A stretch of DNA of 64,000 bases from Desulfobacterales bacterium (GTDB lineage Bacteria; Desulfobacterota; UBA8473). Location of the stretch: NCBI GenBank assembly GCA_016209225.1, contig JACQWO010000025.1, positions 14,548-78,547 on the forward strand, read 5' to 3'. Positions within the stretch are counted from its first letter, which is position 1, and every line of letters begins with the position of its first letter. Under the pieces are notes generated by a model. The model was not told the origin of the DNA. It searched no databases and was given only the letters and a program-made list of their open reading frames with translations. Below are positions 8,548-59,797 of this stretch, piece after piece. The position numbers and the translations under genes are program-made.

Positions 8548-8595
8548 TAGAATTCAGAAGTCAGGAGTCAGAATCCAGATTGGTTAATTCGCTCC
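8548..8595. repeat. Heptanucleotide-periodic repeat element (AGTCAGG/AGTCAGA/ATCCAGA family), short copy
   Basis: cagaagtcaggagtcagaatccagattggttaa is near-identical to 52500-52550, except that the latter carries two extra heptads. Confidence 0.4.
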
Positions 8596-8813
8596 CAGGG
8601 GACTTCTTCAAAGCTCTCGGCAGGTTGTGCAAAGATCTCATTTTAAACAATATTACTGTGGAATTGAGTTTATCACAAGAAAAAAGGGAAGATGATCGGG
8701 AACATCGTTAAAAATATGATCTGAGATGAAAAAGAACTGGATTTAAGTTGATAATTAAGGTATAGATAACTGAGTAGTTAAATGATAGTCCTGAGTTTGC
8801 AAACCCAAATCAA

Positions 8814-9284
8814 GTGGGGGGTAATTTGATTGATCTGGTAAAAAAATTTTTCGGGAAAAGCGCACAGGTTGATACTGGGAATCAAAAAAGAGAAAATTAT
8901 CATGATATCAGGGTGGCAACCTGTGCCATTCTCCTGGAGATGGCTAATATAGACGGTGAGTTTAGTGACGCAGAGCGAGAAGATATTATCTCTATTTTGA
9001 AAAAAGACTATCAATTGTCTGATGAATATACTGCCGAGCTTCTTGAAGCTTCAAATAAGGAGTTGAAACAGAGTATAGACCTATGGCAGTTTACAAACCT
9101 TATCAATCAGAATTATTCAACGGAGGAGAGAATCCATATTATTGAGATGATATGGAAGATTGTTTATGCCGATGGAAAGCTTGATAAACATGAGGATTAC
9201 TTAGTTCACAAACTTGCCAATCTGCTACGTCTTAACCACAAACAACTCATTGATGCCAAAGTAAAGATACCCCACATTGGTTAA
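8814..9284 (+). CDS. TerB-like (tellurite resistance / DjlA N-terminal domain) family protein
   Basis: 156 aa. ATCAILLEMANIDGEFSDAEREDI and a second IHIIEMIWKIVYADGKLDKHEDYLVHKLANLL repeat match the two-lobed TerB fold pattern. Confidence 0.55.
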   Translation: MGGNLIDLVKKFFGKSAQVDTGNQKRENYHDIRVATCAILLEMANIDGEFSDAEREDIISILKKDYQLSDEYTAELLEASNKELKQSIDLWQFTNLINQNYSTEERIHIIEMIWKIVYADGKLDKHEDYLVHKLANLLRLNHKQLIDAKVKIPHIG

Positions 9285-9595
9285 AATCTCCGAGAGCTAA
9301 GGCGGTGTGCCTAATATGATCAATCTGGTAAAAAAGTACCGTGAAACTATACCGTGACTTTTGAAATCCGAAGCACGAAATTTAAAACAAATTCAAATCC
9401 CAAAATTCTAATGTTCTAAACTGTGTTTTGAATTATGGTCATTCGATATTAGGATTTGTTTAGGATCTCGATATTTTATATTCGAATTTATCAATTCTGA
9501 ATATCGAATAATAACTGTTATCGATTAATTGTAAGTATCTTACTGAAACGATATCCTAGAATGATAGATATAGACAAAGGAAAGGAGGAGGGGAG

Positions 9596-10777: not shown

Positions 10778-10821
10778 AAGAGTGGAGGCGTATTTAATGA
10801 CTTCCATTGAAAGGGGGAAAT

Positions 10822-11952: not shown

Positions 11953-11954
11953 GT

Positions 11955-13631: not shown

Positions 13632-13651
13632 AATGGCTGGGAGATTTTTAA

Positions 13652-13725
13652 TGGCTGGGAGACCAGGATTCGAACCTGGGTTGACGGAGTCAGAGTCCGT
13701 AGTCCTGCCGCTGGACGATCTCCCA
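13652..13725 (-). tRNA. tRNA-Gln (anticodon CUG), CCA encoded
   Basis: The reverse complement folds as a cloverleaf. It has a U1-A72 acceptor pair, a GGTTCGAATCC T-arm, the anticodon loop CTCTGAC (anticodon CTG), discriminator G and a 3' CCA. It closely resembles E. coli tRNA-Gln and sits next to glnS. Confidence 0.85.
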
Positions 13726-13870
13726 GTAAGATATGTTTACTGCATCTTTGCTTCTTAATTTATATACAAAGGCATAAAAAAGTCAACAAAAAAAACCTGC
13801 CCCTTTGTTTCAGTTTCCAATAAGATTTATACCTATTCTGTTAGATGCAATAATTATAATAGGGGGAAAC

Positions 13871-22893: not shown

Positions 22894-23868
22894 ATGGCTC
22901 GTAGACCTCGAATTCATTTTCCAGGAGCTTTGTATCATGTCATCACTAGAGGGAATCGAAGACAGGGGATATTCCTTGATGAAAAAGATTTGGAGAAGTT
23001 CCTTGCCTATATTGTGGATTATAAGTCCAGACACTCTTTCCATCTTTATGCTTACGCTTTGATGAAAAATCATCTCCACCTTCTTGTGGAGGTTGAAGAG
23101 ACACCTTTGAGCAAAATCATGCAATCTCTCTTGTTTCGTTATACGCGTTATTTTAATAGGCGATATGGTGAGGTGGGGCATCTTTTTCAGGGACGATATA
23201 AGGCGATTGTGTGTGACAAGGATGCTTATCTTTTAGAATTGGTTCGCTATATTCATTTGAACCCCGTTCGGGCAAAAATTGTGAATATGCCTGAAGATTA
23301 TGGGTGGACTGGTCACCTCAGTTATTTGGGAAGAGGTAGGAATGATTTAATTGATGAGGGTTTTATGTTAGATCAATTGAGCAGGGACATATCTTTGGCG
23401 AGGCGGAGATACCGTCAATTTGTATGGGAAGGGATTGCAAGTGGGCACCAGGAGAAATACTACGAGGTCAAAGATCAGCGGTATCTTGGAGAGGACAGTT
23501 TCATTAATCAGATCGAAGTGGGAAGGAACAAGCCTGAAAGCTGGGTTTATGATGTTCCACTGGAAGCTATATCTCAGGAGGTGAGCAGAGTTACAGGGAT
23601 TACGGAAGAGAGGTTGTACTCTGGGACGAGAGATCGCGAAGGGGCGCGTGGGAGGGGCTTAGTGGCATACTTGGCCAAGACGGTATCGAATTATATGGTG
23701 AAAGATATAGCCAGCCATTTCAAGCGGAGTCCTGTTACTATAGGAGAGGCAATCATCAAGGTTGAAGATATTCTGAAGAGTGATAGTTCATTCGAGAAGG
23801 AGCTAACACGCATGGGGGAGAATCTGATCCAGGGGAGGAAGAGAAAATACCGTATTTCCGTTGCCTGA
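22894..23868 (+). CDS. IS200-like Y1 (HUH) transposase domain fused to a DnaA domain-IV-like HTH (second, low-GC copy)
   Basis: MARRPRIHFPGALYHVITRGNRRQ...YALMKNHLHLL...RYIHLNPVRA. The C-terminus LVAYLAKTVSNYMVKDIASHFKRSPVTIGEAIIKVEDIL resembles DnaA domain IV. The track ORF starts at a TTG at 22858. Confidence 0.7.
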   Translation: MARRPRIHFPGALYHVITRGNRRQGIFLDEKDLEKFLAYIVDYKSRHSFHLYAYALMKNHLHLLVEVEETPLSKIMQSLLFRYTRYFNRRYGEVGHLFQGRYKAIVCDKDAYLLELVRYIHLNPVRAKIVNMPEDYGWTGHLSYLGRGRNDLIDEGFMLDQLSRDISLARRRYRQFVWEGIASGHQEKYYEVKDQRYLGEDSFINQIEVGRNKPESWVYDVPLEAISQEVSRVTGITEERLYSGTRDREGARGRGLVAYLAKTVSNYMVKDIASHFKRSPVTIGEAIIKVEDILKSDSSFEKELTRMGENLIQGRKRKYRISVA

Positions 23869-23932
23869 CCCCATTCTTCTGGACCCCATTCTTCTGCATT
23901 CTTCCTTGACCCCATTCTTCCTAAATTTTTCA
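23869..23932 (+). repeat. Three direct repeats of GACCCCATTCTTC immediately 3' of the Y1/DnaA-IV gene
   Basis: tgACCCCATTCTTCtggACCCCATTCTTCtgcattcttccttgACCCCATTCTTCc. Confidence 0.5.
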
Positions 23933-36492: not shown

Positions 36493-36514
36493 ACGTTTAC
36501 CCCTTGTAACTACG

Positions 36515-36592
36515 CAGGTGTTTAGGCTGAAGGCTGAAGGCTGAAGTGTCCTAACAGTCTTCCACCTTCAGTCTATCCACCTGAGGTGTTAC
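36515..36592. repeat. Heptad-repeat element (GCTGAAG x3) with conserved terminus GGTGTTTAGGCTG
   Basis: caggtgtttaGGCTGAAGGCTGAAGGCTGAAGtgtcctaacagtcttcCACCTTCAGtc. Lies between metF and the gltB-like operon. Confidence 0.4.
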
Positions 36593-36604
36593 CCCCCCTT
36601 ATTT

Positions 36605-38196: not shown

Positions 38197-38422
38197 AGGT
38201 TGTCTCCTCTCTCCAATTCAGATACTGAACTCCAGACGTCAGACACCAGACTTTTCTGTAACTGTTCACGGTTTACGGTAATTACAACAGCAGGCTTAAG
38301 CCCGCTGTTATATAAAGCTTGGAGCATTTTTGCCAACTGTTAACTGCAAATCGTAAACTGTAAACAGATACCCCAAGTCTAATGTCTTAGGTCTATAGTC
38401 TTACTGTCTGAATCACGGTTAC

Positions 38423-38836
38423 TTAATTGTGTACAGGGGATGGAGGTAATTTCAAAGTTCTTTCCATTGCGGCCCTGGCATGATCGGCTAATGATATTGG
38501 GTTCTCTTTTGAACCGATTATCATACCTATCCGTTCTACCTCCAGCCCGATGCTTGCAATGATTGCCCTGGTCTTCTCCACCCGCTTTTTTGCCCTTTTA
38601 TTTCCTTCAGAATATCTACATACCCCTTCAGGGCATGTAATTATAAAGACAACGTCAGCAAATTCCTCCAGCGCCAGCAGCAGATGAATAGGTTCCAGCC
38701 TTCCACTGCAAGGAACAGTAAAAAGCCTTATGCCTCTCCCATACTTCTCCTCCAAATCCTGTCTTTCCCTTTCGCCACTTGCGGGAACATTCTGACAATA
38801 ATAAAGAGCAAGTGTCCGTTTCTGTTCGCTGGTCAT
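38423..38836 (-). CDS. MvhD/FlpD-like hydrogenase iron-sulfur subunit family protein
   Basis: 137 aa. LFTVPCSGRLEP...FIITCPEGVCRY is the MvhD-family cysteine pattern. Confidence 0.65.
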   Translation of the reverse strand: MTSEQKRTLALYYCQNVPASGERERQDLEEKYGRGIRLFTVPCSGRLEPIHLLLALEEFADVVFIITCPEGVCRYSEGNKRAKKRVEKTRAIIASIGLEVERIGMIIGSKENPISLADHARAAMERTLKLPPSPVHN

Positions 38837-38849
38837 TTGTAATAAACCC

Positions 38850-39010
38850 CTTTCAGTGACTGCTTAGGTTGTTTAGACTGTAGGCTGTTAGTCTACAGTC
38901 TACAGGCTACAGGCTAACAGTCTACAGGCTACAGGCTATCCGTTCAGGTCGCACATGATTTCCTCCCACAGGCTAACTGCCTACAGCCTAAACACCCGAG
39001 TAGTTACCAT
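38850..39010. repeat. Heptad-repeat element (CTACAGG family) flanked by inverted termini (GGTTGTTTAGACTGTAGGCTGTTAG and CTAACTGCCTACAGCCTAAACACC)
   Basis: ctacaggctacaggctaacagtctacaggctacaggcta between roughly 24-bp inverted arms. The terminus resembles that of element 36515-36592. Confidence 0.45.
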
Positions 39011-39166
39011 CCTGAACCCAAAAAAAAAGGTGCCCTCTTTGATCAGACACCTTTGTCCCTTTTTAGTATTACAGTACCCCATCGTACTGTACTAACTTTT
39101 CACTGCGCTAAAGTTCCCATAGTATTTGGGCAATAGCCTTTGTCATCTTTTACGAGTTTTTTGACA

Positions 39167-39361
39167 TTAGACTTTATAATAAAGTAATTCTAATATCCTG
39201 GCAGTCTCAAGTTGATTGCCTTTGTTTTTCTCCATTACTTTTTCTGCCAGAGGCCTTCCCAAAACTTCTTGAATAAAGGTATACAAGTCCTTGTCTGTCC
39301 TGCTCAAAAAAAAGTCTTCGACTATTTTTACCGCCTGTTCTTGAATATTCAAGCTTTCCAA
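39167..39361 (-). pseudogene. Third, degenerate copy of the sigma54-activator C-terminal (Fis-HTH) segment, 64 aa
   Basis: DKDLYTFIQEVL...KNKGNQLETARILEL aligns with DKDVFSFLEKML...RTKGNQVKAAKLLGI of gene 27840-29285. It lacks the end of the HTH. Confidence 0.4.
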
Positions 39362-39399
39362 AATTCTACAACCTTCCGTTATTCCCTACCCCCCTAAAA

Positions 39400-39760
39400 C
39401 AAATTTAAGGAACTTTCCACAAGAAGGGTGGAATTAGCGTTTAGGGTTAAATTAATATGAAATATGTTAAATATTGCTTAACTTAATCCTTGTTTAGAAA
39501 AATAAATAAATCGCTTATGCTTTAGCAATGATTAATATTTTAATCATGCTTAAATTAAATGTCAAGATAAAAATTGCGCCCAATAAAAATATTTACATAC
39601 TAATTAAGCACTGCTTAATTAGTTGAATTTGCAAAACTTATGAATTAAATTATTAAAAACAAATTGTTTTGACTTTTCCCTGTATTTAGTTACACTGAAT
39701 AAATTAATAAAAGAACCTTAGAAAAGTATCCCTTTTTAGCTTAAGCATCCATTTTTTGAG
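39400..39760. promoter_or_regulatory. AT-rich region with TTAAGCA-type palindromes upstream of the KaiC-like/HTH gene
   Basis: Perfect palindrome TTAAGCAcTGCTTAA. Related sites: ATTGCTTAA, ATGCTTTAGCAAT, ATGCTTAAATTAAAT, AGCTTAAGCAT. Confidence 0.3.
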
Positions 39761-39769
39761 GTGGGTCTT

Positions 39770-40846
39770 ATGAAAGAATTTTATAGCAGCGGAATTCCGT
39801 ATTTAGATGATCTCATGGGAGGGGTTTTACTTGGGGATAATGTAGTTTGGGTATTGGGGCCAGGGACGTATTATGATTATTTTTTGGAATGTTTTTTGAC
39901 TGTAAGGGAGGATAACCCTTTCAAGAATATCTATGTGAGCTTTGATTTCCCTCCTCAAAAGATATACACACGTTATAAGGAGTTTTTCGATAAAGAGGAT
40001 TTTATACTTGTGGATGCCTTTACATTCGGAAAGGCAAAGGGCGATGAGTTCTTTCAATCCTTTTACAAAAGTGAAACTACCGGATCCGAGTCGTTTCGTG
40101 TACACTGCATAAAAGACCTGTCTGACCCTATCGAATTTATAAAAGTCATTCGTGAATTGCAAAATGAATTTAAAGAGGGTAGCTTGTGTAAATATGCCTT
40201 TGATAGCCTGACGGGAATGCAAGAACTATGGGGTGAAAAAGAGACCCTTCATTTCTTTACATATACCTGTCCCAAACTTTTTGAGCTAAAGGCATTGGCT
40301 TACTGGCCCCTGGCTAAGGATGCTCATTCTAAAGCGTTCTTGGCAAATATAAGCCATATAACCCAATTGGTAATTCATTTAGATTCTCAGGGAGACAGTA
40401 CCTGTACGGCAGGATTTTTAAAGATGGATGGCAGGCCTTCTCAGTTGTTGAACGGCGTTCATTACTATAATTTTCAAGACAATGAGATAAATTTTCTAGA
40501 ACCCTCTGAACAGGCAGATGAACGAAGATTTAAAACATATGGATTGTCTTATCAAGGGAGAGATTCGGAAAGAATTCCGAGTTTTTTACGCAATAAAGAC
40601 CGGATAAATATAGGAGGCCGTATCAAGGATTTTCGACTGAAAAAAAACATTTCACAGGTAGAATTAGCCAGAATATTGGATATTACACCAAGTGCGTTAT
40701 CTCAAATAGAGAGCAATCAGAGCCTTCCATCACTTAAACTCTTCGTGGATATTGCCCGATGTCTTGAAAAATCCCTGGATTCTTTCTTTATCGATTCTCA
40801 TGCTCCCCTTAAAAATCAAAGGCAAAACAGAAGAGAACGAGGGTAG
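39770..40846 (+). CDS. KaiC/RecA-superfamily-like domain with degenerate Walker A, fused to a C-terminal XRE-type HTH
   Basis: GIPYLDDLMGGVLLGDNVVWVLGPGTYYDYF, with no GKT/S. The C-terminus LKKNISQVELARILDITPSALSQIESNQSLPSLKLFVDIARCL is the HTH_XRE pattern. RBS GAGGTGGG before the ATG at 39770. Confidence 0.55.
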   Translation: MKEFYSSGIPYLDDLMGGVLLGDNVVWVLGPGTYYDYFLECFLTVREDNPFKNIYVSFDFPPQKIYTRYKEFFDKEDFILVDAFTFGKAKGDEFFQSFYKSETTGSESFRVHCIKDLSDPIEFIKVIRELQNEFKEGSLCKYAFDSLTGMQELWGEKETLHFFTYTCPKLFELKALAYWPLAKDAHSKAFLANISHITQLVIHLDSQGDSTCTAGFLKMDGRPSQLLNGVHYYNFQDNEINFLEPSEQADERRFKTYGLSYQGRDSERIPSFLRNKDRINIGGRIKDFRLKKNISQVELARILDITPSALSQIESNQSLPSLKLFVDIARCLEKSLDSFFIDSHAPLKNQRQNRRERG

Positions 40847-40859
40847 GTTCTTAGTGTTC

Positions 40860-42053
40860 TCAGTACATCTCGTATTTAACCAGCCTGCCGTCAAGCCCGC
40901 CGGCTTTGATCGGTTTTTTCCATGATGCTTTAAGCCCGATTTTTTTGATATACTTCCGTTCTCCGAAATAAACAAAAGCGGCCGAGCCTTTGCATTTCTG
41001 TTTCAGAAAATCGCCGAGATTTTTATAAAACATTTCAAGGTTCTCATTTCCCCCCATCCGAATGCCATAAGACGGATTGGTCACAATTACATGCTCTTCA
41101 AGGGCAGGCAGCTTTCTGAAGTCCGCCCTTTCAACGCTTACGTTATTTCCGAAATGGAGCCCCATCAGGTTTGTCCTCGACGCCCTAACAGCCTCCGCGG
41201 ACACATCACTACCTGCAATCAGCCCTTTCGGGAGTTCCCGGATGTGTCCGTCGGCCTCTTTTTTTACCTGCTTCCAGACAGCGCCATCAAAGTCGGGCAG
41301 AAATTCAAAACCGAATTGATTCCTGAAAACACCCGCAGGAATATTGCTATACCGCATGAGCGCTTCACACAAAAGGGTTCCCGAACCGCACAAAGGATCA
41401 TATAAAGGAACAGAACCGTCCCATTCGCTGAATCGAATAATCGCGGCGGCGACGGTTTCCTGCATCGGTGCCGAAACGGTCTCTTCTCTGTATCCTCTCC
41501 GGTGAAGCGCGCCGCCTGAGGTATCGAGGCTTATCACTGCCTCATTGTTCCTGATATGAAGGTTCAGCAGGATATCCGGATTCCTTACCGACACATTTGG
41601 ACGCCGACCGGTTTTTTCTTTAAAATAGTCTGCAACCGCATCTTTAAGTCGGAGGGCAGCGTACTTTGAATGCGAAATCGAACTGTTGGAAACATTCCCC
41701 GATACGGCAAAGGTATTGCCTTTTGCAAAAAAATCTTCCCAGGAGATTTGTTTGGCCTTCTGATACAGAGTATCGGGATCATGACAAGGGTATGATATTA
41801 ACGGCGCCAGGCACCGTGAAAGAAGCCTGGTCAAATAATTAATTCGATACAGGGTTGATTTGTCCGCCCTGAAATGAATTCCGCTGAATTCCGGCCTTAC
41901 ATCTTCAGCGCCGAGTTCAGCAAGTTCCTCCGCACCGGCTTCTTTTAAACCGTCGGCTATCTGGGCAAAATAACGGCAATCCTTCTGATACTGATATACC
42001 GCCGTTTGCCGCTTTTCTCTTCTAAGGCATTTGACCCTATCGGCTGATGCCAT
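40860..42053 (-). CDS. THUMP-domain class I SAM methyltransferase (RlmL/YpsC-like)
   Basis: 397 aa. The N-terminus is THUMP-like. DPLCGSGTLL (motif I) and VTNPSYGIRM (an NPPY-type motif) are typical of RlmL-family RNA methyltransferases. Confidence 0.7.
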   Translation of the reverse strand: MASADRVKCLRREKRQTAVYQYQKDCRYFAQIADGLKEAGAEELAELGAEDVRPEFSGIHFRADKSTLYRINYLTRLLSRCLAPLISYPCHDPDTLYQKAKQISWEDFFAKGNTFAVSGNVSNSSISHSKYAALRLKDAVADYFKEKTGRRPNVSVRNPDILLNLHIRNNEAVISLDTSGGALHRRGYREETVSAPMQETVAAAIIRFSEWDGSVPLYDPLCGSGTLLCEALMRYSNIPAGVFRNQFGFEFLPDFDGAVWKQVKKEADGHIRELPKGLIAGSDVSAEAVRASRTNLMGLHFGNNVSVERADFRKLPALEEHVIVTNPSYGIRMGGNENLEMFYKNLGDFLKQKCKGSAAFVYFGERKYIKKIGLKASWKKPIKAGGLDGRLVKYEMY

Positions 42054-42317
42054 TTATCACCGCTTTCGTTTCAATCGGAGCAGGAAAGAACGGTCGAGAT
42101 ATTGCTTGACCATTTCAAACCTTTTGCAGTATTAGTTGTAACACGCCTGAATGAACTCTTTCGTTGCCGCATCAGGGTATATTGCAAGAGTTTGGGTATA
42201 AAATCAACTGAATTGTGCGTAAGTCCGTTCTTTGGTGGGAAGAATGCGAGCGCGCAGCCGGAGGAAAATTTTTACGGGTATTGATGTTGGGTAAACAGGA
42301 AGGGGGAGGCCTGCAAA

Positions 42318-42593
42318 ATGGATACGGATTATAAAAGCAGAACCCGGAAAAAAAATGAAGACAAGGCACTACAGCGCCTGGGCGAACAGTTGGTCGCCCT
42401 GCCGTTAGGCCAGCTTGAGACCATGGGGCTGCCGGATGAGCTTCTGACTGCCATCGAATTAGCACGCAGAATAAGGAGCCATAGCGCCAAGCGCAGGCAG
42501 ATTCAGTACATCGGCGTCCTCATGCGGCATATCGACCCGCAACCCATCGAAACCGCCCTCGATCGCATCCGGTCAGGAAACTTACGGAAATAA
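42318..42593 (+). CDS. YjgA/DarP-family (DUF615) ribosome-associated protein, short form (N-terminal half only)
   Basis: ALQRLGEQLVALPLGQLETMGLPDELLTAIELARRIRSHSAKRRQIQYIGVLMR is colinear with E. coli YjgA residues about 20-90. It stops at 91 aa. Confidence 0.5.
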   Translation: MDTDYKSRTRKKNEDKALQRLGEQLVALPLGQLETMGLPDELLTAIELARRIRSHSAKRRQIQYIGVLMRHIDPQPIETALDRIRSGNLRK

Positions 42594-42768
42594 CCCGGCG
42601 CCCGCCGAAAACGCGGAATTTTAACCCCGTACCCTTATAACGGTGCAATTTTCGGGTTAACTCTGCCTTCAGTGGCCCAATATCCGAGATAAGCCGCCGC
42701 GCGGCGGGAACAAGGTCGAATGCAACGTGTGTGGTCAGGGGATTCATTTGCTTCAGCGCATCGGCTGG

Positions 42769-43839
42769 TTATTCATTCAGTTTCACATTGCCGAGAAACA
42801 CGATAAACTTCTTGAGCAGATCTCTGTCGAAGCATCGTCTCATGCCCATATCGCGATCATCCTGCTTCGGATCCTCATCCTCTTCTTTATCTTCAGGCAT
42901 TCCGATCATGATCTGCGCTGCCTTCATGGGGGGCATGGGATCTTTGTAGGACCGGCGGGACGTCATGGCGTCAAACACGTCGATAATCCTCAATACACGG
43001 GCCAAGATGTTTATGTTCTGTCCTTCCAGGCTCATGGGATATCCTCCACCTTCGAAATCCTCATGATGATGCAACACCGCTTTTTTCACGAACGTGGGGA
43101 TTTCCGTATCGATAAGCATCGCCATACCGTTGAGCGGATGGCGTTTCATGATTTCCCACTCTACCTCGTTGAGGGGTTCGTTTTTTGTGAGTATATCTTG
43201 CGAAACAAAGGCTTTGCCGATGTCGTGCAGCAGGGCACCGATGCCGCATTGTTTCATCATATCCATTCTCCGGGTTTCATCGAGTAGCTGATACCCCGGC
43301 TCGATCTGTTCCATGATGTACGGGTTAAGTTGGAGAAACGCCACGGTAAACCAGAGGACCTTGGTTGAATGTTCATATGTCCGGTAGTCATGGCCGATCA
43401 TTTTCGCCAGCGCCTGAAGGGATTTTGCTTCCTTTATGAATATCAGGGCATTTTCAATAAATTGCTGCGTCCGCTGGATAGCTGCGGTGCCCATAGTGCC
43501 CAGCCCGTAGGACGTTTCAAAGGCTACCTTGAGGACATTGGTGGAAACTTTACTGAATACCTCTGCTTTATGGTCGTCCGCCATCGATTGATTACCCAGG
43601 ATATTCCCCAGATTGCTCTCAAGATAAAGTTCGTATTTGAACTGTTCTTCGAGGGCGATAAATACCTCGATGGTTCCGCTCTCGGAAAGTTTGGCGAGTT
43701 GTTCTGTAGTGACTTTTTTGCCTTCCAACGCCCAGAGGACATGTTTCCCCTGCGGCGTGACGACATAAATTCTAAAATCTGGTAAGGCCCCTGGTATAAT
43801 CGCACCAGGTGGGACGGCTATGTACCTGCTGTCTGTCAT
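42769..43839 (-). CDS. HD-GYP domain protein (candidate c-di-GMP phosphodiesterase)
   Basis: HDIGK and HHHEDFEGGGYP motifs. The N-terminal roughly 150 aa are unassigned. Confidence 0.75.
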   Translation of the reverse strand: MTDSRYIAVPPGAIIPGALPDFRIYVVTPQGKHVLWALEGKKVTTEQLAKLSESGTIEVFIALEEQFKYELYLESNLGNILGNQSMADDHKAEVFSKVSTNVLKVAFETSYGLGTMGTAAIQRTQQFIENALIFIKEAKSLQALAKMIGHDYRTYEHSTKVLWFTVAFLQLNPYIMEQIEPGYQLLDETRRMDMMKQCGIGALLHDIGKAFVSQDILTKNEPLNEVEWEIMKRHPLNGMAMLIDTEIPTFVKKAVLHHHEDFEGGGYPMSLEGQNINILARVLRIIDVFDAMTSRRSYKDPMPPMKAAQIMIGMPEDKEEDEDPKQDDRDMGMRRCFDRDLLKKFIVFLGNVKLNE

Positions 43840-43971: not shown

Positions 43972-44334
43972 CTATGTACCTTGCAGCAACCGGAAGATAG
44001 GTTTCATCCAATAGGGCATGATGAAAACCTCCCCTGCCAAAGATAACCGCCATCCCTTGAGAAAGTTTATGTATCGGGTATATCGGTGTGCCTCTCCAAT
44101 TGCCCTTCTCAAGTCATCTTCCGAAGCCGGAATGGCAATAAGATGAACGTGGTTGGGCATCAGGCAGTAAGCCCATATCTCCACATTACACCGTTTGCAC
44201 CATTCAGACATGAGGGCTATATATTCCCTGTAATCTTCCTCTCTGAAAAAGGTCCGCTGTCTTCGATTGCCACGTTGTGTTATATGGTGGGGAAGCCCAG
44301 GTGAAACTACACGACCTATTCTCGCCATAGTCAA
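43972..44334 (-). CDS. IS200-like Y1 (HUH) transposase, short stand-alone form (RayT-like)
   Basis: PGLPHHITQRGNRRQ...AYCLMPNHVHLI...HRYTRYIN. It lacks the DnaA-like tail. About 350 nt from REP-like copy A. Confidence 0.6.
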   Translation of the reverse strand: MTMARIGRVVSPGLPHHITQRGNRRQRTFFREEDYREYIALMSEWCKRCNVEIWAYCLMPNHVHLIAIPASEDDLRRAIGEAHRYTRYINFLKGWRLSLAGEVFIMPYWMKPIFRLLQGT

Positions 44335-44442
44335 ATAATACTATCGCAAATCTCTCTTGTCAATAATTAGGTATTGAGTCCCCGGAATTCTGTTAAGGAC
44401 CGAGTCCCGAGATCGGATACAGTTCCCGGATCAATCCGTGCT

Positions 44443-44652
44443 TTACGAAGTTTTTTTCGGTTGATTATCCGACTTCTTTTTATCCTTTTGATCCTGTTTG
44501 CTTTTTTTCTGTTTTTGACTCTTGTCCTTATCCTTCTTTCCGCCTTTGTCTCCCATTGTGCACTCCTTTCCTTTTATCAATCCCGTTCTTGCCGCAAAGG
44601 GCGCTCTGTCGTAAGTTATAGCTTTTCGTGTCTTCATTGACCTTTCGGTCAA
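44443..44652 (-). CDS. Small hypothetical protein with an extremely Lys-rich tail
   Basis: TTG start. GDKGGKKDKDKSQKQKKSKQDQKDKKKSDNQPKK. Low-complexity; coding status uncertain. Confidence 0.25.
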   Translation of the reverse strand: MTERSMKTRKAITYDRAPFAARTGLIKGKECTMGDKGGKKDKDKSQKQKKSKQDQKDKKKSDNQPKKTS

Positions 44653-44688
44653 TTATACTACACACTGAAATAATGTTTTATAATGTAT

Positions 44689-44800
44689 AATGCGGCGCTG
44701 AGCGGTGTCCCGAAGGGACATCCGTCTCCTGTGCCTGGTTCTCCCTGAGAGAAGCGGAGGGCAGGCACAACCGCTCAGCGCCGCATTCCCCCTGAGGGTT
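44689..44800 (+). repeat. REP-like structured element, copy A
   Basis: AATGCGGCGCTGAGCGGTGTCCCGAAGGGACATCCGTCTCCTGTGCCTGGTTCTCCC...GAGGGCAGGCACAACCGCTCAGCGCCGCATT, with a variant 3' hairpin. Confidence 0.6.
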
Positions 44801-44874
44801 GAGCCGCCGAGTTTACGAGGTAGGCTCCACCCTCTTGTTGGGCCGGAGCGCTAGCGATCGGCTGTATTGATTTG

Positions 44875-45048
44875 TTATGCCAATTCTTTTATTATATGCT
44901 TTGCAAGGTTCTCATCAATCTCGCCATGTCTTGGAACAGGTTGTTTCTTGCCTGTTTTAGGATTCGCATAAAGATCGTGGCGGCCGCCGTGCCTCACAAG
45001 CACACACCCTACAGACAATATTCTCTTCAGCAATTCTTTTCTTTTCAT
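44875..45048 (-). CDS. hicA: HicA-family mRNA interferase toxin (57 aa)
   Basis: Hand translation of the minus strand gives MKRKELLKRILSVGCVLVRHGGRHDLYANPKTGKKQPVPRHGEIDENLAKHIIKELA. It forms an ATGA start/stop overlap with hicB. It is not in the ORF track because it is under 60 aa. Coordinates may be off by about 1 nt. Confidence 0.65.
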   Translation of the reverse strand: MKRKELLKRILSVGCVLVRHGGRHDLYANPKTGKKQPVPRHGEIDENLAKHIIKELA

Positions 45049-45242
45049 ACATTTATGGCAAGTTCTTTGATTTCGTGCTGCTCCGGGACATCTTCCAGTG
45101 TCATCATCGCGTAAGCGTCCTTCATGTTATCTTCAAGTTCTTCCAACGTCCCGCCTTGCGTCATTATTTCTGGATGTTCTAGGAGTTTCCCCACCCAAAA
45201 CTTTTCGCCTTTCCAATAGATCATTTTTAGCTTTGTTTCCAT
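45045..45242 (-). CDS. hicB: HicB-family antitoxin, short form
   Basis: KMIYWKGEKFWVGKLLEHPEIMTQGGTLEELEDNMKDAYAMM matches the HicB N-domain. Confidence 0.6.
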   Translation of the reverse strand: METKLKMIYWKGEKFWVGKLLEHPEIMTQGGTLEELEDNMKDAYAMMTLEDVPEQHEIKELAINV

Positions 45243-45529
45243 GCTGCAACCTCCTAAGCTTGGTATTTCTTTATCAATATAATATCACATGAAGTGAGGA
45301 TAGGAAATATCTTTTATAATCCTTGCCCAACGAGTCTGTAGAAAAAGTCCTTTTACAGGGGAGTAGTTTCCTGACCAAGACCGATTTTTTTTAGACTTTT
45401 AACTTAGCATAGACGATGCATTTTCCCGGCGGAGCATTATTGCCCTTCCTTCAATCTGTGAAGATATCGAGTGGCGTTGCTTTGTTAAGCTTCATCCCTG
45501 CTTTATCCGGTCTTCATCCTTTGGGTATA

Positions 45530-46137
45530 TCAGGCAAATCCCAAACCATACCTGTGTATCTTCTTCACATTGTGAATAATACAGAACAGATTCCACTGCA
45601 TGTTTACCTTTTTTTTACCCCGCAATGTGAAACGGTTAAGGCCAATAGCTGATGCGATATGGTCAAACGGCGGCTCACTTATTGCCGGCCGCATCCCGTA
45701 AAGAACTCTACCTGAAGCAGAGTCAATCTTCCGCTTCATTCTCTCTGTAAAGGTAATCTCGCCTTTTGCCGACCTTCCCACAAAATAAGCAACCTGCCGT
45801 ATCTCTGTACGCTCCGGATACCGCAGGCATTGGGAACGAAGGGCACATGGAAGGCAGACCGACTTGGGTCCCTTAAACTTATATGCCCGAAAGTTCTTCA
45901 CTACAACGTTGGCGCCGCTGCGGTAGAGTCGTTTACCTGCCGGGCATAAACAATAACGCAACTCTTTGTCAAAGATGAAGTCTTTGGTACTAAAAAGTGG
46001 AGTGTGTCCCTTCCGACCAGCTCGTTATCGATGAGATGATTCAGAGAGTATTCAAAGGTGCAGGGAAGGATTTGTTTCTCGAAATGGATGGGGATGAATT
46101 TACCTTGTTCGTATGAATAGGGTTTGTAACGTGCCAT
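45530..46137 (-). pseudogene. IS1182-family transposase remnant (N- and C-terminal pieces, frameshifted and internally deleted)
   Basis: The N-terminal piece MARYKPYSYEQGKFIPIHFEKQILPCTFEY and the C-terminal piece ...FTLRGKKKVNMQWNLFCIIHNVKKIHRYGLGFA match IS1182 transposase ends. Total coding is about 220 aa versus about 450 expected. Confidence 0.6.
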
Positions 46138-46253
46138 GCAACACCTCGGTAAATGGTTAAGCGGTTACCAACTCCAATGTTGCAGCAATATTACAATAAA
46201 ATGCTCATGGTTACAATCATTTTACCTCTATATCACCCTTTTCCTACAGATTC

Positions 46254-46380
46254 AACGCGGCGCTGAGCGGTGTCCCGAAGGGACATCCGTCTTCCTGTGC
46301 CTGGTTCTCCCGGAGCGAAGCGGAGGGCAGGCACAACCGCTCAGCGCCGCGTTCCCCCTGAGCGAAGCGAAGGGGGAATG
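46254..46380 (+). repeat. REP-like structured element, copy B
   Basis: AACGCGGCGCTGAGCGGTGTCCCGAAGGGACATCCGTCTTCCTGTGCCTGG...CAGGCACAACCGCTCAGCGCCGCGTTCCCCCTGAGCGAAGCGAAGGGGGAA. Confidence 0.65.
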
Positions 46381-46447
46381 ATAAAGTCACCTGCCAGTGT
46401 GAAGCGTAGCGAAACACCGGTCAGGTGGACTGACAGGTTGGGCGGGC

Positions 46448-46777
46448 TCAAAATGCAAATAGCCGTTGTAAGAGAGAAATAACCTCCAACTGAGTTTCTG
46501 AATCAATAGAACCAAGCTTTTTTATGAGTCGTGTTTTATCTATTGTTCGAATCTGATCCAAGACGATTTGCCCTTTTTTCTTTTTAAATTTGCATGATAT
46601 CCTTGTGGGATAGTCCTTGCCGGCAGTAGTCATCGGGGCAACTATAACGGTGCGGATATGCCGGTTCATTTCATCTGGCGAAATAATCACGCAAGGTCGC
46701 GTTTTCTGTATTTCAGAACCAACAGTAGGATCAAGATTGATCAAATACACATCGAATCGATTCACTACCATTGCCAT
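46448..46777 (-). CDS. mazF: MazF/PemK-family endoribonuclease toxin
   Basis: FDVYLINLDPTVGSEIQKTRPCVIIS is the canonical PemK/MazF motif. Confidence 0.8.
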   Translation of the reverse strand: MAMVVNRFDVYLINLDPTVGSEIQKTRPCVIISPDEMNRHIRTVIVAPMTTAGKDYPTRISCKFKKKKGQIVLDQIRTIDKTRLIKKLGSIDSETQLEVISLLQRLFAF

Positions 46778-49596: not shown

Positions 49597-49787
49597 CGCC
49601 TGAATTAAGCCGCGCCGCGAAGCGGCGTCGGCTTGAATGAATTGTTAGGCCTGCCTGAGACAGGCCTTTCTGTTGATTGCACGGATAACCAGACCATAAG
49701 AAATGAATTCAGGCGCAATCACATCTTGACGAGCCACCAGCTGTTGCGCGGCACAGCCGTTGACGATCCGCCGGATGCGCCAACGCA

Positions 49788-52335: not shown

Positions 52336-52496
52336 GATAACCCTCCTCTCTTTTTTCTGCGTATTATCAAATAAATTTCTTAAAAAATACAATATAACAC
52401 CAAAAATATCAAGGAATTTTACCTGTTTCTGTCAAAAAATTTCCGCTACCAAAAGTTCCTTGACAAAAATGCAATCTATAAGATAAAACATAACTA

Positions 52497-52625
52497 AGTC
52501 AGGAGTCAGAATCCAGAATTCAGAATAGAGATTGGTTAACCTTATGCCTTGAGTCCCAAACAAAACAAGGAAGGATTGTCTTTTTATTCTGACTTCTGAC
52601 TCCTGACTTCTGACTCCTAGATTAT
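52497..52625. repeat. Heptad-repeat element (AGTCAGG family), long copy, with a partially complementary right arm (TTCTGACTTCTGACTCCTGACTTCTGACTCC)
   Basis: aAGTCAGGAGTCAGAATCCAGAATTCAGAATAGAGATTGGTTAA ... attctgacttctgactcctgacttctgactcct. Lies between the divergent fba and GGDEF-like genes. Confidence 0.45.
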
Positions 52626-53964: not shown

Positions 53965-53980
53965 TACAAGGAACCATGAT

Positions 53981-54496
53981 ATGGATAGAAAAAGATGGTT
54001 TGTCCTTTTCCTAGCAGTTATGTTTTTAACGGCATGCGCTTCTGCTGTGCCAACCTTTCCCGACAGAGATATTCACCCTCCGAAGGGGGTTCCGATAACT
54101 AAAGATAAGACCGTAGTCAAAGATAAGGCCATAGTCGATAGATCGATGTCAGACACGGATCTTTTTCATGACGCTGTTTCATATCTGGGCAACCCTGAGG
54201 TAACGGTTGACTATTTAAGAGCGAGATCGGCATTTGAACTATTAGTAAAAACCTATCCTAAGAGCAAATGGCGCAACCTTTCTGAAACATTTATCAGGAT
54301 CATTGATGACATAAAGGCATACCAGGCAAAGAGTATATCTGATCAATTGTTGCTTGATAAAGCCCAGGCAGATAAGGGCAGGCTTTTTCAGGAGAATGAG
54401 CAGTTAAAGAAAGATAGCGAGCAGTTAAAGAAAGATATCCAGCTTTTGAAGAATCTGGAGATTCAATTAGAAAAAAGGGAGAGGACGCTCCGATAA
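53981..54496 (+). CDS. Lipoprotein with a C-terminal coiled coil
   Basis: MDRKRWFVLFLAVMFLTAC is a lipobox. The C-terminus QENEQLKKDSEQLKKDIQLLKNLEIQLEKRE shows heptad periodicity. The track ORF begins 8 codons upstream, overlapping the previous gene. Confidence 0.45.
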   Translation: MDRKRWFVLFLAVMFLTACASAVPTFPDRDIHPPKGVPITKDKTVVKDKAIVDRSMSDTDLFHDAVSYLGNPEVTVDYLRARSAFELLVKTYPKSKWRNLSETFIRIIDDIKAYQAKSISDQLLLDKAQADKGRLFQENEQLKKDSEQLKKDIQLLKNLEIQLEKRERTLR

Positions 54497-54531
54497 ATAG
54501 TTTATCCATGTACCTCGTTCATCTGTACACA

Positions 54532-57105: not shown

Positions 57106-57108
57106 GTT

Positions 57109-57975
57109 CTATAACCTCAACAGTCTTTTGGCGTTCTCACCATATATCTTGTCAATCTCCTCCTTGGAAAGACCGCAGTTCTCTATCTGTTTCCTGTATC
57201 TCCTCTGGTCTATCAGAGGATAGTCAGTGCCAAATAGGATTTTATCGGGACCGATTGTCTTTACCGCAACAGGATATATTTTGTGAGTGTATAAAAATAT
57301 AGACGCTGCAGTATCGTAATAGACCCTTTCTGCAGCCTTTGCTACCTCTGGCATCAATTCATAAAAGAGGAATCCACCTCCCCAGTGGGCCATAATAATA
57401 TCTATGTCAGGATAAGAAAGGATAAAATCATAATACTGCCTGATCTCTGTTTTCGCCTTTCCCACATAGTAATGACCTACGGTCTCATTGGTATGCAGCA
57501 TGATTGGGACATTGAGACCCTTTACAACCTCTACAATCGGACGCATAACCTTTTCGTCATCTATCGCTACCCTGTGAGCCTCTGTAACTATCTCACCAAC
57601 GCCTTTCAAGCCCAATCCAACACACCGCTCAATCTCTTTAATCGTTTTGCCCCTATCCTTTAATTGAATAGAAGCGAAACCTATAAGTCTGTCAGGGTAT
57701 CTCTTAATAGATTCCAGGAGGTAGTCATTCCCATCCCTACAGAGTCCTTGATCTGACCATGTAAACCCACACACTACACTTTTATCCACCCCTGATTGGT
57801 CCATTGCGGCTATCAATTCTTCAGCACCTATCATGCCGGCATTCTTTGATTCTCCCAGCATATTGGACCGCTGTCCGCCAAATAACAAGCGGAAAAGAGG
57901 GTCCTTTTTCCGATACTTATCCAGATTGTTCCTCACCTCTTTGGAGAATATATGGGTATGGAAGTCTATTATCAT
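57109..57975 (-). CDS. Amidohydrolase-2 family metal-dependent hydrolase (TIM barrel)
   Basis: MIIDFHTHIF is the N-terminal metal-binding motif. The rest matches the Amidohydro_2 pattern. Confidence 0.7.
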   Translation of the reverse strand: MIIDFHTHIFSKEVRNNLDKYRKKDPLFRLLFGGQRSNMLGESKNAGMIGAEELIAAMDQSGVDKSVVCGFTWSDQGLCRDGNDYLLESIKRYPDRLIGFASIQLKDRGKTIKEIERCVGLGLKGVGEIVTEAHRVAIDDEKVMRPIVEVVKGLNVPIMLHTNETVGHYYVGKAKTEIRQYYDFILSYPDIDIIMAHWGGGFLFYELMPEVAKAAERVYYDTAASIFLYTHKIYPVAVKTIGPDKILFGTDYPLIDQRRYRKQIENCGLSKEEIDKIYGENAKRLLRL

Positions 57976-58502
57976 ATACCCCCTCCATCCGGTGATTCTT
58001 CATAGCGGGCCAAAGTGAATATCAAATCTGCCGATCTATTAAGGTATGCCAGTATCTTATCGTTGAGCAAAATATTATCTTCCTTTAACCCTACAGCCCT
58101 CCTTTCTCCCCTTCTGATTATGGTACGGGCCATATCCAAAGAAGCAGAGACCATGGATGCCCCTGGAATGATAAAGCTTTTAGGGAGCTTTACCTTGTCT
58201 TCTATCTCTTCAATAAGGTTTTGCAATTCCTGAACGTCATCTTCTTCAATCTTCTTCTTTAATTTTCCATAATCCTTCGGATCGGTGGCCAGTTCTCCCC
58301 CTATCACAAAGAGCATTTCCTGAACCTTATAGATAATCTCCTTAACTCTCTCATTCTTGGAAAGGGCTCTGGCAAAACCCAGTGTAGAATTGGCCTCGTC
58401 CAGGGTGCCGTAGGTTTCAGGTCTCGGATCGGATTTGCGTATTCTCTGACCATACAGCATACTGGTGTATCCTTCATCGCCTTTTTTATTAAACAGCTTC
58501 AT
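57972..58502 (-). CDS. PduO-type ATP:cob(I)alamin adenosyltransferase
   Basis: KKGDEGYTSMLYGQRIRKSDPRPETYGTLDEANSTLGFARA matches the Cob_adeno_trans N-terminal signature. Confidence 0.75.
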   Translation of the reverse strand: MKLFNKKGDEGYTSMLYGQRIRKSDPRPETYGTLDEANSTLGFARALSKNERVKEIIYKVQEMLFVIGGELATDPKDYGKLKKKIEEDDVQELQNLIEEIEDKVKLPKSFIIPGASMVSASLDMARTIIRRGERRAVGLKEDNILLNDKILAYLNRSADLIFTLARYEESPDGGGI

Positions 58503-58582
58503 AAATCCTCCCTATTTTACACTTAAATACGGAAGTCGTAAATCGTAAATCGTGAATGAGTTTTTTATTTTCGACTCACGAC

Positions 58583-59797
58583 TCACGAGTTCTTCCCTTG
58601 CATACTGATCTTTCCATAAACACCATCATACCCTGGTGTAATATCCAATTTTCCTTCTCTTACCTTCATGATTCCCTCTAAGATATTTGGTTGGGTAAGC
58701 CCGACCAGTTCATCCCTGGATATATCTAAGAGGATGTTAAACTCATTTCCCCCCTTTGCTATCATCTTTCCATACTCTCTTCTCACTTTGGCTGTATTTA
58801 CACCGCATCCCAGCACTTCAGCGATAATTTCCTCCAGTGGAACCAGATGCCTGGCAGGGATCGCCCCCTCTGGCACAAAACCCTCAGTGCGATCCGAGAG
58901 GGCCTCTACGCGGTGCATTACCCCGATAGTAAGCCTTTTTTTGCACACCGGACATATATTATCGTTGTTTCTGCTCTCAGATGGAGAAAAGAGAATACCA
59001 CAGTTTCTGTGTCCATCATAGTGATATTTCCCCTCTTCAGGAAAGAATTCAACAGTAAAGAGCAGCTTACTGCGATCCTTTTCTCTCAGACACTTCATGA
59101 TTTGATTATAGTTCAAATCACAATTAAAGACATTTGCCTCCCTGCCTATTTTGGCGGGTGAATGAGCATCGGAGTTGGAAATAAGGGCGATTCTGTCCAA
59201 GGCAGAAAGCCTCCAGTTCATTGCCGGGTCCGAAGATAAGCCGGTTTCAATAGCATGTATATGCTCAGATTGATCCCCGAAACACTCCTCCAGGGAATCA
59301 AAACCTGAGTTAGCCCCGAAGAGAGAGAACCAGGGAGTCCATGCGTGTGCAGGTACTAGAAAACACTCTTCTGATGTATCCAATACCAGCTTGACCAGAT
59401 CTTTGACATGGAATCCGAAGGTGGGTCTGCCGTCGGAACCAAGCTTGCCTCTTCTCCCCAATTTTGCGTTTACCTTCTCCACTACCTCTAAAGTAGGGGC
59501 AAAGATAAGTGTATGAACCTTATGGAGCTTCCCCGCCTGAGAGAAGATATTGCTTACCTCGGCAGTCAAGACAAAGCGAACGTTTTTGCTTCCGTTCTTT
59601 AAGGTTAGAAGGTTACCATCAGAAGGTTCAAGTTTCGTTTTAAGTTCAGCAAAGTATAGGGGATGGGTAAAGTCTCCTGTTCCCAACAGGGTGATTCCCT
59701 TAATCTCTGCCCATTTGCTCAGGGTTTCAACTTCCATATCCTTGCTTGTTGCCCTGCTATATCTGGAATGGACATGGAAATCTGCTATGAATCTCAT
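58583..59797 (-). CDS. PHP-domain protein, endonuclease Q (EndoQ/TIGR00375)-like
   Basis: ADFHVHSRYSRATSKDM...LLGTGDFTHP, PAHAWTPWFSLFG and SNSDAHSP follow the EndoQ PHP motif order. The zinc finger CPVCKK is in the C-terminal half. Confidence 0.55.
   Translation of the reverse strand: MRFIADFHVHSRYSRATSKDMEVETLSKWAEIKGITLLGTGDFTHPLYFAELKTKLEPSDGNLLTLKNGSKNVRFVLTAEVSNIFSQAGKLHKVHTLIFAPTLEVVEKVNAKLGRRGKLGSDGRPTFGFHVKDLVKLVLDTSEECFLVPAHAWTPWFSLFGANSGFDSLEECFGDQSEHIHAIETGLSSDPAMNWRLSALDRIALISNSDAHSPAKIGREANVFNCDLNYNQIMKCLREKDRSKLLFTVEFFPEEGKYHYDGHRNCGILFSPSESRNNDNICPVCKKRLTIGVMHRVEALSDRTEGFVPEGAIPARHLVPLEEIIAEVLGCGVNTAKVRREYGKMIAKGGNEFNILLDISRDELVGLTQPNILEGIMKVREGKLDITPGYDGVYGKISMQGKNS

Follow-up and report, generated by a model that had tools for sequence, protein, structure and literature searches.

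Heptad-built intergenic hairpins in a Desulfobacterales genome: probable gene-less copies of a small mobile cassette that encodes a four-helix-bundle protein

A stretch of 64,000 nucleotides from Desulfobacterales bacterium (GenBank assembly GCA_016209225.1, contig JACQWO010000025.1, positions 14,548 to 78,547; the whole stretch is referred to as the window) contains structured intergenic elements built from degenerate tandem heptanucleotides (heptads), and raises the question of what such elements are and how they come to lie within operons of central metabolism. An initial annotation, made from the sequence alone, described period-7 arrays with conserved inverted termini at six intergenic loci and suggested that they could be phase-variable or structural regulatory elements. 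The loci are named here A (8550-8587), B (52490-52625), C (36506-36592), D (38213-38422), E (38856-39007) and F (58531-58596); L-numbers denote retrieved stretches from other genomes and metagenomes, among which L127-L206 are metagenome loci of a four-helix-bundle cassette. We propose that C, E and both parts of D are probably copies of tiny transposable cassettes that lack the open reading frame (ORF) and resemble MITEs (miniature inverted-repeat transposable elements), that A, B and F probably belong with them, and that their RNA hairpins would be substrates of RNase III.

Tandem Repeats Finder (TRF) reports period-7 arrays at all six loci: 8549-8573 (3.6 copies) at A, 36524-36546 (3.3 copies, 100% matches) at C, 38335-38365 (4.4 copies, weak) at D, 38893-38938 (6.4 copies) at E, 52507-52526 and 52587-52615 at B, and 58524-58557 and 58572-58588 at F. 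An excess of this period over chance is borne out within the window, where other periods and Markov shuffles give nothing comparable. A lag scan finds seven runs at period 7 and none or one at each other period within 4-12, and a stricter version finds five runs at period 7 against 0.0 across 20 shuffles. The runs are confined to intergenic spacers; a strong heptad signal is present in four of 39 spacers and a moderate one at D, and A is masked by a spurious ORF. The window elements span 66-226 nt, and inverted arms were found in all but A, measuring 31-38 nt at B, 38 nt at C, 28 nt with 86% complementarity at E and 16-17 nt at F, with three nested pairs at D. Hairpins are predicted for C (-41.6 kcal/mol on the sense strand, z -5.6; -45.3 on the plus strand, z -6.9), for the whole D spacer (-82.4 kcal/mol, z -6.9), for B on its two strands (-46.2 and -46.0 kcal/mol, z -4.2 and -3.7), for E (-52.2 kcal/mol on the mRNA strand, z -2.0; -57.7 on the plus strand, z -4.6) and for F (-24.1 kcal/mol on the mRNA strand, z -4.0, versus -17.9 antisense, z -2.1), while A is a lone arm that forms no hairpin in folding (z -0.6 and +0.6). 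An Rfam search of the window found no family for the elements, weak generic microRNA-like hairpin matches at C and E, and one tRNA only. The gene names of the initial annotation are supported by Pfam. Its placing of the elements in divergent or promoter-proximal regions holds for A and B, which lie in divergent spacers, but not for C, D and F, which lie between co-directional genes of one operon, nor for E, which lies behind a terminator-like hairpin upstream of flpD. Every window element ends 5-35 nt 5' of the next gene's ribosome-binding site or start codon.

What the arrays are part of can be read from C and E, which belong to one family:

36506-36592, minus strand: element C, an ORF-less member of the GGCTGAA-heptad family, complete at 87 nt, with termini that match the family.
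38856-39007, minus strand: element E, a 152-nt member of the family of C, with the GGCTGTA (CTGTAGG) variant.
38948-38966, minus strand (the operon strand): remnant of the cassette ribosome-binding site and start codon inside E, GGAGGAAATCATGTGCGAC.

C consists of GTAACTACGCAGGTGTTTAGG(CTGAAGG)x3, an 11-nt loop and CCTTCAGTCTATCCACCTGAGGTGTTAC, and lies between the MTHFR stop codon and the ribosome-binding site of the GltB-like gene. E has the termini GTGACTGCTTAGG and CCCGAGTAGTTAC around an interior made of a CCTGTAG/CTACAGG heptad expansion, and is located between the terminator-like hairpin and the flpD ribosome-binding site. This hairpin (39019-39058, minus strand; run of 9 T, GGGACAAAGGTGTCTGATCAAAGAGGGCACCTTTTTTTTT) follows a 64-aa gene just before E, is kept in two relatives discussed below (L121 and L126) and was missed by a consensus scan. 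C and E share a terminus of roughly 30 nt, GTAACTACTCAGGTGTTTAGGCTGAAGG...CCTTCAG..CCTGAGTAGTTAC. A common terminus GGTGTTTAGGCTG had already been noticed in the initial annotation, and this motif has four matches in the window against 0.23 expected; the shared stretch is longer, GTAACTAC..GGTGTTTAGGCTG.AGGC.

The terminus is widely spread. Its 16-nt core, TGTTTAGRCTGWAGGC, was scanned in one genome per species and matched at least 118 stretches; since an estimated ~1000 chance matches to a 16-nt core are expected in that collection, the context of each match matters. In most of the matches listed the flank that had not been part of the search is conserved as well: GTAACTACTCAGG precedes the core, (CTGAAGG)n or (CTGTAGG)n follows it, and a partner arm, ...CCTTCAG(C/T)CTATC(T/C)ACCTGAGTAGTTAC, stands 20-200 nt downstream of the core. 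Among the matches listed, most come from metagenome-assembled genomes (MAGs) of Desulfobacterota, and others from Nitrospirota, Methylomirabilis, Elusimicrobia, Desantisbacteria, Brocadiaceae, Verrucomicrobia and Bacteroidia. The arms keep an asymmetric bulge (GTTTAGG against CTATCTA) and end in AAC...GTT. Terminal inverted repeats of the form GTAACTACTCAGG...CCTGAGTAGTTAC occur in C, E and dozens of loci, and GTAAC..GTTAC ends are also found in the family of the inner part of D. The 150 ORFs beside the elements match 144 different Pfam families, all housekeeping, and no enrichment of integrase, transposase or toxin-antitoxin genes was found among these 150. ORF-less copies occur in both orientations (39 versus 18), C having the commoner arm orientation.

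The mid-sized elements carry decayed pieces of an ORF on the strand opposite the GTTTAGG arm, starting MRDHTK... and ending ...ETEKVLNGLIRAL. In L092, from a Nitrospira MAG, an intact 118-aa ORF stands between the arms and matches the four helix bundle protein family TIGR02436 (E 5.6e-34), with a weaker match to Avd of diversity-generating retroelements. Using tblastn and jackhmmer, remnants of this ORF were found in mid-sized elements at no fewer than 12 other loci, and a metagenome scan with the L092 protein gave 80 loci whose relatives are 72-92% identical to it; almost all of these loci have the same arms on either side of the gene. Upstream of the gene the metagenome cassettes are built as (GTAACTACTCAGG)TAGATAGGCTGAAGG(CTGAAGG)n..TTTTAGGGGTCAATC-ATG, and downstream as ..TAGCCTTCAG(CCTTCAG)n..CCTGAGTAGTTAC. 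Two or more heptads stand on each side in 51 of 69 cassettes; their number ranges from 0 to 17 upstream and from 0 to 9 downstream (means 3.8 and 2.5), against means of 0.5 and 0.7 in control stretches 540-700 nt from the cassettes, and the counts of the two sides are weakly correlated (rho 0.36). The complete unit would thus be a cassette of ~430-470 bp, in which a 5' arm of GTAAC, ~10 nt and one to more than ten degenerate heptads precedes a ribosome-binding site of its own and a single gene for a 116-118-aa four-helix-bundle protein (TIGR02436 / PF05635, the S23p of 23S rRNA intervening sequences, Avd-related), followed by a 3' arm that is complementary to the 5' arm and ends in GTTAC. The remnant inside E matches the RBS-ATG-CGx-GAC start of the full-length ORF in L092 (RBS, ribosome-binding site), and likewise in L087, L109 and L016; in L121 the same place reads ATG TGC GAC CAT ACG AAG CTC (MCDHTKL), fused to a C-terminal remnant. 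Where full-length cassettes of L127-L206 stand between co-directional genes, 25 are co-oriented with them and none is opposed, which seems to fit a gene and RNA that depend on host read-through transcription. The gene remnants of E and D in the window are also co-oriented with the operon.

Immediately outside GTAAC/GTTAC, perfect 8-bp direct repeats are present in 13 of 26 two-ended elements and near-perfect ones in 5 more (examples are AAGATGAC, GATTTCGG, TTAAGTTC and GAATTATC); the chance of one perfect 8-bp pair is 1.5e-5. When all loci are counted together, a duplication with no more than one mismatch is present in 32 elements, which measure 102-229 nt (25 elements) or 432-469 nt (7 elements), the latter being complete cassettes. 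No pair of terminal inverted repeats more than 500 bp apart and with duplications was found in all loci (~1 Mb), the largest measuring 469 bp, and a blastn comparison of the full cassette with plasmids gave no match. The duplication of an 8-bp AT-rich target on insertion implies a transposase acting in trans. In the window, C is flanked by TACCCCTT (36498-36505) and CCCCCCTT (36593-36600), which are equal at 6 of 8 positions and are read here as a decayed target-site duplication; the outer part of D is truncated. A further subfamily with the same arms, found in many Desulfobacterales MAGs, has a well-conserved interior (..GGGGTCAGAAGAGCACGATTGCCGTACTTTGGCGGAAATATCTGATTCTTGCACCAAACATGGCTTCAAAATGCGC..) and perfect 8-bp duplications in copies:

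L048 787-946; L085 2830-2989 and 25-183; also L096, L113, L046, L079, L098 and others: subfamily of 162-168 nt.

Element D is composed of one element within another:

38258-38371, minus strand: inner D, of a GTTCACG/GTTTACG-heptad family (GTAAC...GATAC), with nested inverted repeats, nested in outer D.
38213-38255, minus strand: outer D arm by the metV ribosome-binding site, GTCTGGT GTCTGAC GTCTGGA GTTCAGT ATCTGAA, with its terminus truncated at the ribosome-binding site.
38372-38422, minus strand: outer D arm by the flpD stop codon, GTAACCGTGATTCAGACAGTAAGACTATAGACCTAAGACATTAGACTTGGGG.

The core hairpin of inner D, ACAACAGCAGGCTTAAGCCCGCTGTT, and its translation on the minus strand, ..AKMLQALYNS.., resemble the 3' end of an ORF for a four-helix-bundle protein. 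Inner D is 89-95% similar to L109 and L080, and has its heptads and core hairpin in common with these two and with L096. In L096, inner-D heptads surround an ORF remnant ending ..ISKMLQSLHSSLKKL*, a family matched by the ..KMLQ.L.. reading of inner D; L096 also holds an ORF-less copy that ends in GTAAC..GTTAC and is flanked by a perfect duplication of 8 bp, GATAAAGG. The outer D family is represented in L099 by the same arms around a four-helix-bundle C-terminal remnant (jackhmmer E 0.08), with CACCAGCC on both sides. Judged by their sequences, the two parts of D are sister families with the same build as C and E, so that at least three heptad families share one build. A sigma-54 promoter reading of TTGGAGCATTTTTGCC in D was rejected, the motif being antisense and its GG-to-GC spacing one base short of the consensus. 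Both short-read assemblies of the same strain, L001 and L002 (= window 38292-42934), stop exactly at the tip of D's central palindrome (GCAGGCTTAAGCC). Hairpins of this kind break short-read assemblies, and in annotation they are not to be read as regulatory switches.

Relatives of the flpD operon were retrieved through FlpD homologues, of which that of L121 has 93% and that of L126 79% identity. At the site of E the window has the 152-nt element, L121 has an element in the same place with a different interior (a gene remnant, as against the CCTGTAG expansion of the window) and L126 is empty (18 nt). The D spacer measures 226 nt in the window, 89 nt in L121 and 111 nt in L126. The outer D arm at the metV ribosome-binding site is conserved at the orthologous site in all three, whereas L121 and L126 lack the outer arm at the flpD stop codon and the greater part of inner D. 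The D spacer of L121 holds a mini element of 32 nt that belongs to the inner-D family, GTAACTGTTCACGGTTCTCAGTTTACAGTTAC, and is not present in L126. C is absent from both relatives, which have a conserved ~190-nt hairpin in this MTHFR-to-GltB-like spacer instead (L121 3792-4079, L126 4707-4927; the window orthologue is 36493-36604). That hairpin, GCCGGCTGCCTGTTTCTTGTTGCTT ... AAGCAACAAGAAACAGGCAGCCGGC, shows compensatory changes between L121 and L126, and its interior CTTTTAGGGG is like the cassette leader. The differences in elements between the window, L121 and L126 point to turnover between species-level relatives. At the level of sequence, it is by their termini, 8-bp duplications and gene remnants and by the empty site that C, D and E are recognised as mobile-element copies.

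How such copies could arise and be tolerated is suggested by a known system. In Leptospira and Salmonella, RNase III cuts the stem of intervening sequences (IVSs) in 23S rRNA, which are removed without religation. The Coxiella 23S rRNA IVS, the nearest relative that has been studied, is 428/444 nt long and has terminal inverted repeats, a 28-bp stem in which RNase III cuts, an S23p ORF and, before its ATG, two or three tandem GACAGAT heptamers whose number varies between strains; transposition has been hypothesised for its origin (PMC4990558). The cassettes described here are similar to S23p-bearing IVSs (PMC4990558) in their ~430-470 nt, their long inverted-repeat stem, their single TIGR02436 / PF05635 ORF, the variable number of heptamers between the 5' stem and the ATG, the decay of the ORF and a sporadic spread that suggests horizontal transfer. 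They differ in that the present copies occupy mRNA spacers flanked by protein genes and not helices 9, 25 or 45 of 23S rRNA, in that the window copies have no ORF, and in their GTAAC/GTTAC ends and 8-bp duplications, which are unreported for IVSs in the literature searched; RNase III excision, demonstrated for IVSs, is inferred here.

On this model, copies would lose the gene by internal deletion and keep the arms, the arms would gain or lose heptads by slippage, which is the simplest reading, and elements may insert into one another, as in D. Transcription of the operon through an element would allow the arms to pair into a long double-stranded stem, and a cut by RNase III in the polycistronic mRNA could excise the element and leave the cistrons separately translatable. 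The stems, of 17 to ~80 bp, are long enough for RNase III, cleavage itself being predicted. Such excision would explain why insertions just upstream of ribosome-binding sites are tolerated in the flpD-metV-metF-gltB-like operon, a core operon of Wood-Ljungdahl type, and effects on neighbouring genes, through mRNA processing or stability, may be a by-product. An element could in this way be harmless within an essential operon since RNase III cuts it from the polycistronic RNA.

The elements also resemble bacterial MITEs and mobile insertion cassettes, with which they have in common terminal inverted repeats, a duplication of fixed length, small dispersed intergenic copies, the lack of a transposase, internal deletions, nesting and hairpin transcripts. 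Unlike MITEs, they have no identifiable parent insertion sequence, the largest form has only the 118-aa gene, the repeats are long and made of expandable heptads, and the termini occur across several phyla. MITEs, S23p-bearing IVSs and heptamer repeats are each known; their link, together with the defined ends and the 8-bp duplications, is new as far as the literature was searched. That search, which was incomplete, found nothing linking IVSs or four-helix-bundle genes with MITEs, defined ends or target duplications, and for the arm sequences it gave nothing but matches to unrelated primers. Where 23S rRNA IVSs come from and what the S23p gene does have been open questions since about 1990, and transposition has been proposed but not shown in the literature searched. 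The relatives of the window elements offer direct sequence evidence for transposition, in the form of defined ends, duplications, empty sites and a series from the 440-bp cassette to a 100-nt hairpin, and they show elements of this kind to occur chiefly outside rRNA, in ordinary operon spacers of several phyla.

Several observations weigh against this reading. In the window itself no significant four-helix-bundle homologue was found by tblastn or in two jackhmmer runs, and the copies there have no ORF. At E a duplication is not recognisable, and that of C matches at only 6 of 8 positions. No transposase was found in or beside any copy, and an autonomous element with the same ends was not found in ~1 Mb of loci or in plasmids. 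None of 20 cassette loci tested contains rRNA, so that the equation with rRNA IVSs rests on protein family and architecture, and transcription of the spacers and RNase III cleavage are argued from analogy with those IVSs. Furthermore, A, B and F have no found link to a four-helix-bundle gene and no target duplications, and A is a single arm. Finally, in 34 of 50 complete elements the fold of the GTTTAGG-arm strand is slightly more stable than that of the mRNA strand, which would fit a role of single-stranded DNA as well as one of RNA. This comparison covers L003-L120 and the window (p 0.008); the better folding of the strand with the 5' GTTTAGG arm is owing to G-T pairs, and that strand is antisense to the cassette gene.

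A bolder version, which we regard as doubtful, is that the ~440-bp cassette is itself the complete mobile unit, with the four-helix-bundle protein as its own mobility or specificity factor. A multimer of the protein could bind the arm heptads and recruit a host nuclease, polymerase or reverse transcriptase. If so, the cassette would be a new minimal transposable element that makes 8-bp duplications and avoids harm through RNase III self-excision, 23S rRNA IVSs would be cassette insertions into rRNA, and many of the short tandemly repeated repetitive (STRR) sequences and TAACTGA arrays of cyanobacteria, Beggiatoaceae and Bacteroidetes would be cassette footprints.

Whether the probable mobile origin of C, D and E extends to the remaining three loci depends on their architecture:

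52490-52625, strand not assigned: element B, a hairpin of 136 nt whose left side has AGTCAGG/AGTCAGA/ATCCAGA heptads and whose right side has TTCTGAC heptads.
8550-8587, strand not assigned: element A, a single arm that is the left arm of B with about two heptads fewer and, as there, TTGGTTAA after it.
58531-58596, minus strand: element F, a small hairpin with TCGTAAA/CGACTCA heptads.

B, with the ends ATAACTAAGTCAGG and CCTAGATTAT, lies in the divergent spacer between fba and a GGDEF-HAMP gene and ends 13 nt before the ATG of the latter. A lies 35 nt upstream of an MFS transporter gene, on the non-coding side of that gene; that it repeats the left arm of B, as the initial annotation stated, is seen on reading both loci. 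F lies between a 404-aa gene and a PduO-type adenosyltransferase gene, its right arm overlapping the upstream stop codon (58583-58585), and is more stable on the mRNA strand due to G-U pairs. Heptads of the A/B and F types gave 93 and 61 pattern matches in viral contigs, with no four-helix-bundle ORF in those loci; the 15-mer count there is about that expected by chance on a rough guess of the collection size. By architecture, A, B and F are probably also members of the small-cassette family.

The alternative that retains the most weight, and one we consider unlikely, is plain slippage without mobility. The STRR sequences of cyanobacteria are short tandem heptamer arrays in intergenic DNA, and the elements might be of this kind, with arrays built in any spacer by a general bias towards heptamer slippage and palindromes produced by template switching; such an origin could fit A, B and F whether or not C, D and E derive from a transposon. 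Heptamers are the commonest class of long simple-sequence repeat in prokaryotes according to Mrazek 2007, as quoted in PMC4679880; heptad arrays of more than 40 different sequences occur in ~1 Mb of related loci, many of them solo; and it is A, B and F that are without duplications or gene links. On the other hand, A and the left arm of B are copies that include the non-repetitive tail TTGGTTAA, which indicates duplication or dispersal of a unit and not local slippage. In addition, the end ATAACTAAGTCAGG of B resembles the family terminus GTAACTACTCAGG, and in L066 B-type arrays are nested within an element of the GGCTGTA family.

There is little probability that the elements are sites selected by the host, with heptads that bind an RNA- or DNA-binding regulator, for instance a translational one as proposed for Beggiatoaceae TAACTGA, or with hairpins domesticated as signals for mRNA stability or processing. 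Each window element stands 5-35 nt upstream of the next ribosome-binding site or start codon, the outer D arm at the metV ribosome-binding site is conserved in the relatives with 93% and 79% FlpD identity, F is more stable on the mRNA strand, and the same was proposed by MacGregor 2015 for heptamers upstream of start codons (PMC4679880). However, C and E are missing from orthologous sites in close relatives (for E, only L126 is empty), and the operon thus works without them; a role for the host may still apply to the conserved metV arm and to F, and is not required for C and E. Nor do the ORF-less copies in both orientations (39 versus 18), the 144 unrelated neighbour families and the lack of any heptad family tied to a regulator agree with selection by the host. 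The TAACTGA arrays of Beggiatoaceae, cyanobacteria and Bacteroidetes are direct repeats upstream of start codons, with one inverted case only; no vehicle was evident for them, and the present gene family is not mentioned (MacGregor 2015, PMC4679880). They are like the arrays described here in consisting of 2-6 heptamers, in lying in intergenic DNA, within operons and near start codons, and in a patchy spread that suggests horizontal transfer (PMC4679880). They differ in heptamer sequence and in that the arrays here are mostly paired inverted arms with defined termini, and PMC4679880 draws no link to four-helix-bundle genes or duplications. The cassettes are a possible vehicle for such patchily distributed bacterial heptamer repeats. 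Intrinsic termination was also considered for the hairpins and rejected, no T run following C, D, E or F on the sense strand. A terminator scan found no site at the C, D and E hairpins; its one match in D (38391-38372, minus strand) is a 6-bp stem in the outer arm, and its total of 4 sites against 2.1 expected is at chance level.

Phase variation, the reading put forward in the initial annotation, would make the elements contingency loci in which slipped-strand changes of heptad number switch neighbouring promoters or leaders, and is very unlikely. Heptad number does change over evolutionary time, as can be seen between copies and lineages (the interior of E against that of L121; 0-17 heptads per arm in 69 cassettes) and between Coxiella strains (PMC4990558), slippage being the inferred cause, and A and B lie in divergent, promoter-bearing spacers. 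However, the arrays are paired hairpin arms, neither spacers between -35 and -10 promoter hexamers nor coding repeats in reading frames, and three of the six lie inside operons. The promoter scan was at chance level, none of its promoter-like matches spanning a tract. The neighbours belong to central metabolism and are not surface or virulence genes, and C, D and E carry transposon hallmarks. When heptad copy number was compared between same-lineage assemblies from different samples, which are consensus assemblies and would not show variation among reads, these were identical through the arrays (window = L001 = L002; L121 = L123 = L125).

Repetitive extragenic palindromes (REP) and bacterial interspersed mosaic elements (BIME) are GC-rich intergenic palindromes of 20-40 nt within operons, linked to REP-associated tyrosine transposases (RAYTs) and without target duplications, and their RNA hairpins can affect mRNA processing and stability; the present elements are likewise intergenic palindromes within operons, but they measure 66-226 nt, are built from heptads and have 8-bp duplications. 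That they are REP/BIME palindromes spread by a RAYT (an IS200-like Y1 transposase) or integron attC sites is barely credible: imperfect palindromes, the conserved asymmetric bulge, AAC...GTT (GTAAC/GTTAC) ends, same-strand triplets in L050 and the presence of a Y1_Tnp fragment and an attC-like site in the window suggested it, but the Y1_Tnp gene (43972-44334) is more than 4 kb from any heptad element, integrase and Y1 genes are not enriched among the 150 neighbouring ORFs, and the attC idea was dropped because of the housekeeping neighbours and the 8-bp duplications, which to our knowledge Y1 transposases and integron integrases do not leave.

Other features of the window concern mobile or repetitive DNA of other kinds. 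A mobile-DNA island at 43972-46777 comprises the IS200-like Y1 transposase fragment (43972-44334), a DDE_Tnp_1_6 fragment (45530-45961) and a MazF/PemK toxin gene (46448-46777). It also contains a long GC-rich palindrome, GCGGCGCTGAGCGGT...ACCGCTCAGCGCCGC, at ~44690-44795 (minimum free energy -0.47 kcal/mol per nt). No link of the island to the heptad elements was shown. The attC-like site at 49598-49652, GCCTGAATTAAGCCGCGCCGCGAAGCGGCGTCGGCTTGAATGAATTGTTAGGC, has a reverse complement that we take to resemble a classical aadA-type integron attC (59-base element), with a GCCTAAC...GTTAGGC-like pattern. Lastly, perfect or near-perfect tandem duplications, unrelated to the heptads, are found at 23867-23920 (15/26 nt) and 54398-54443 (21 nt), with TRF scores of 82 and 80.

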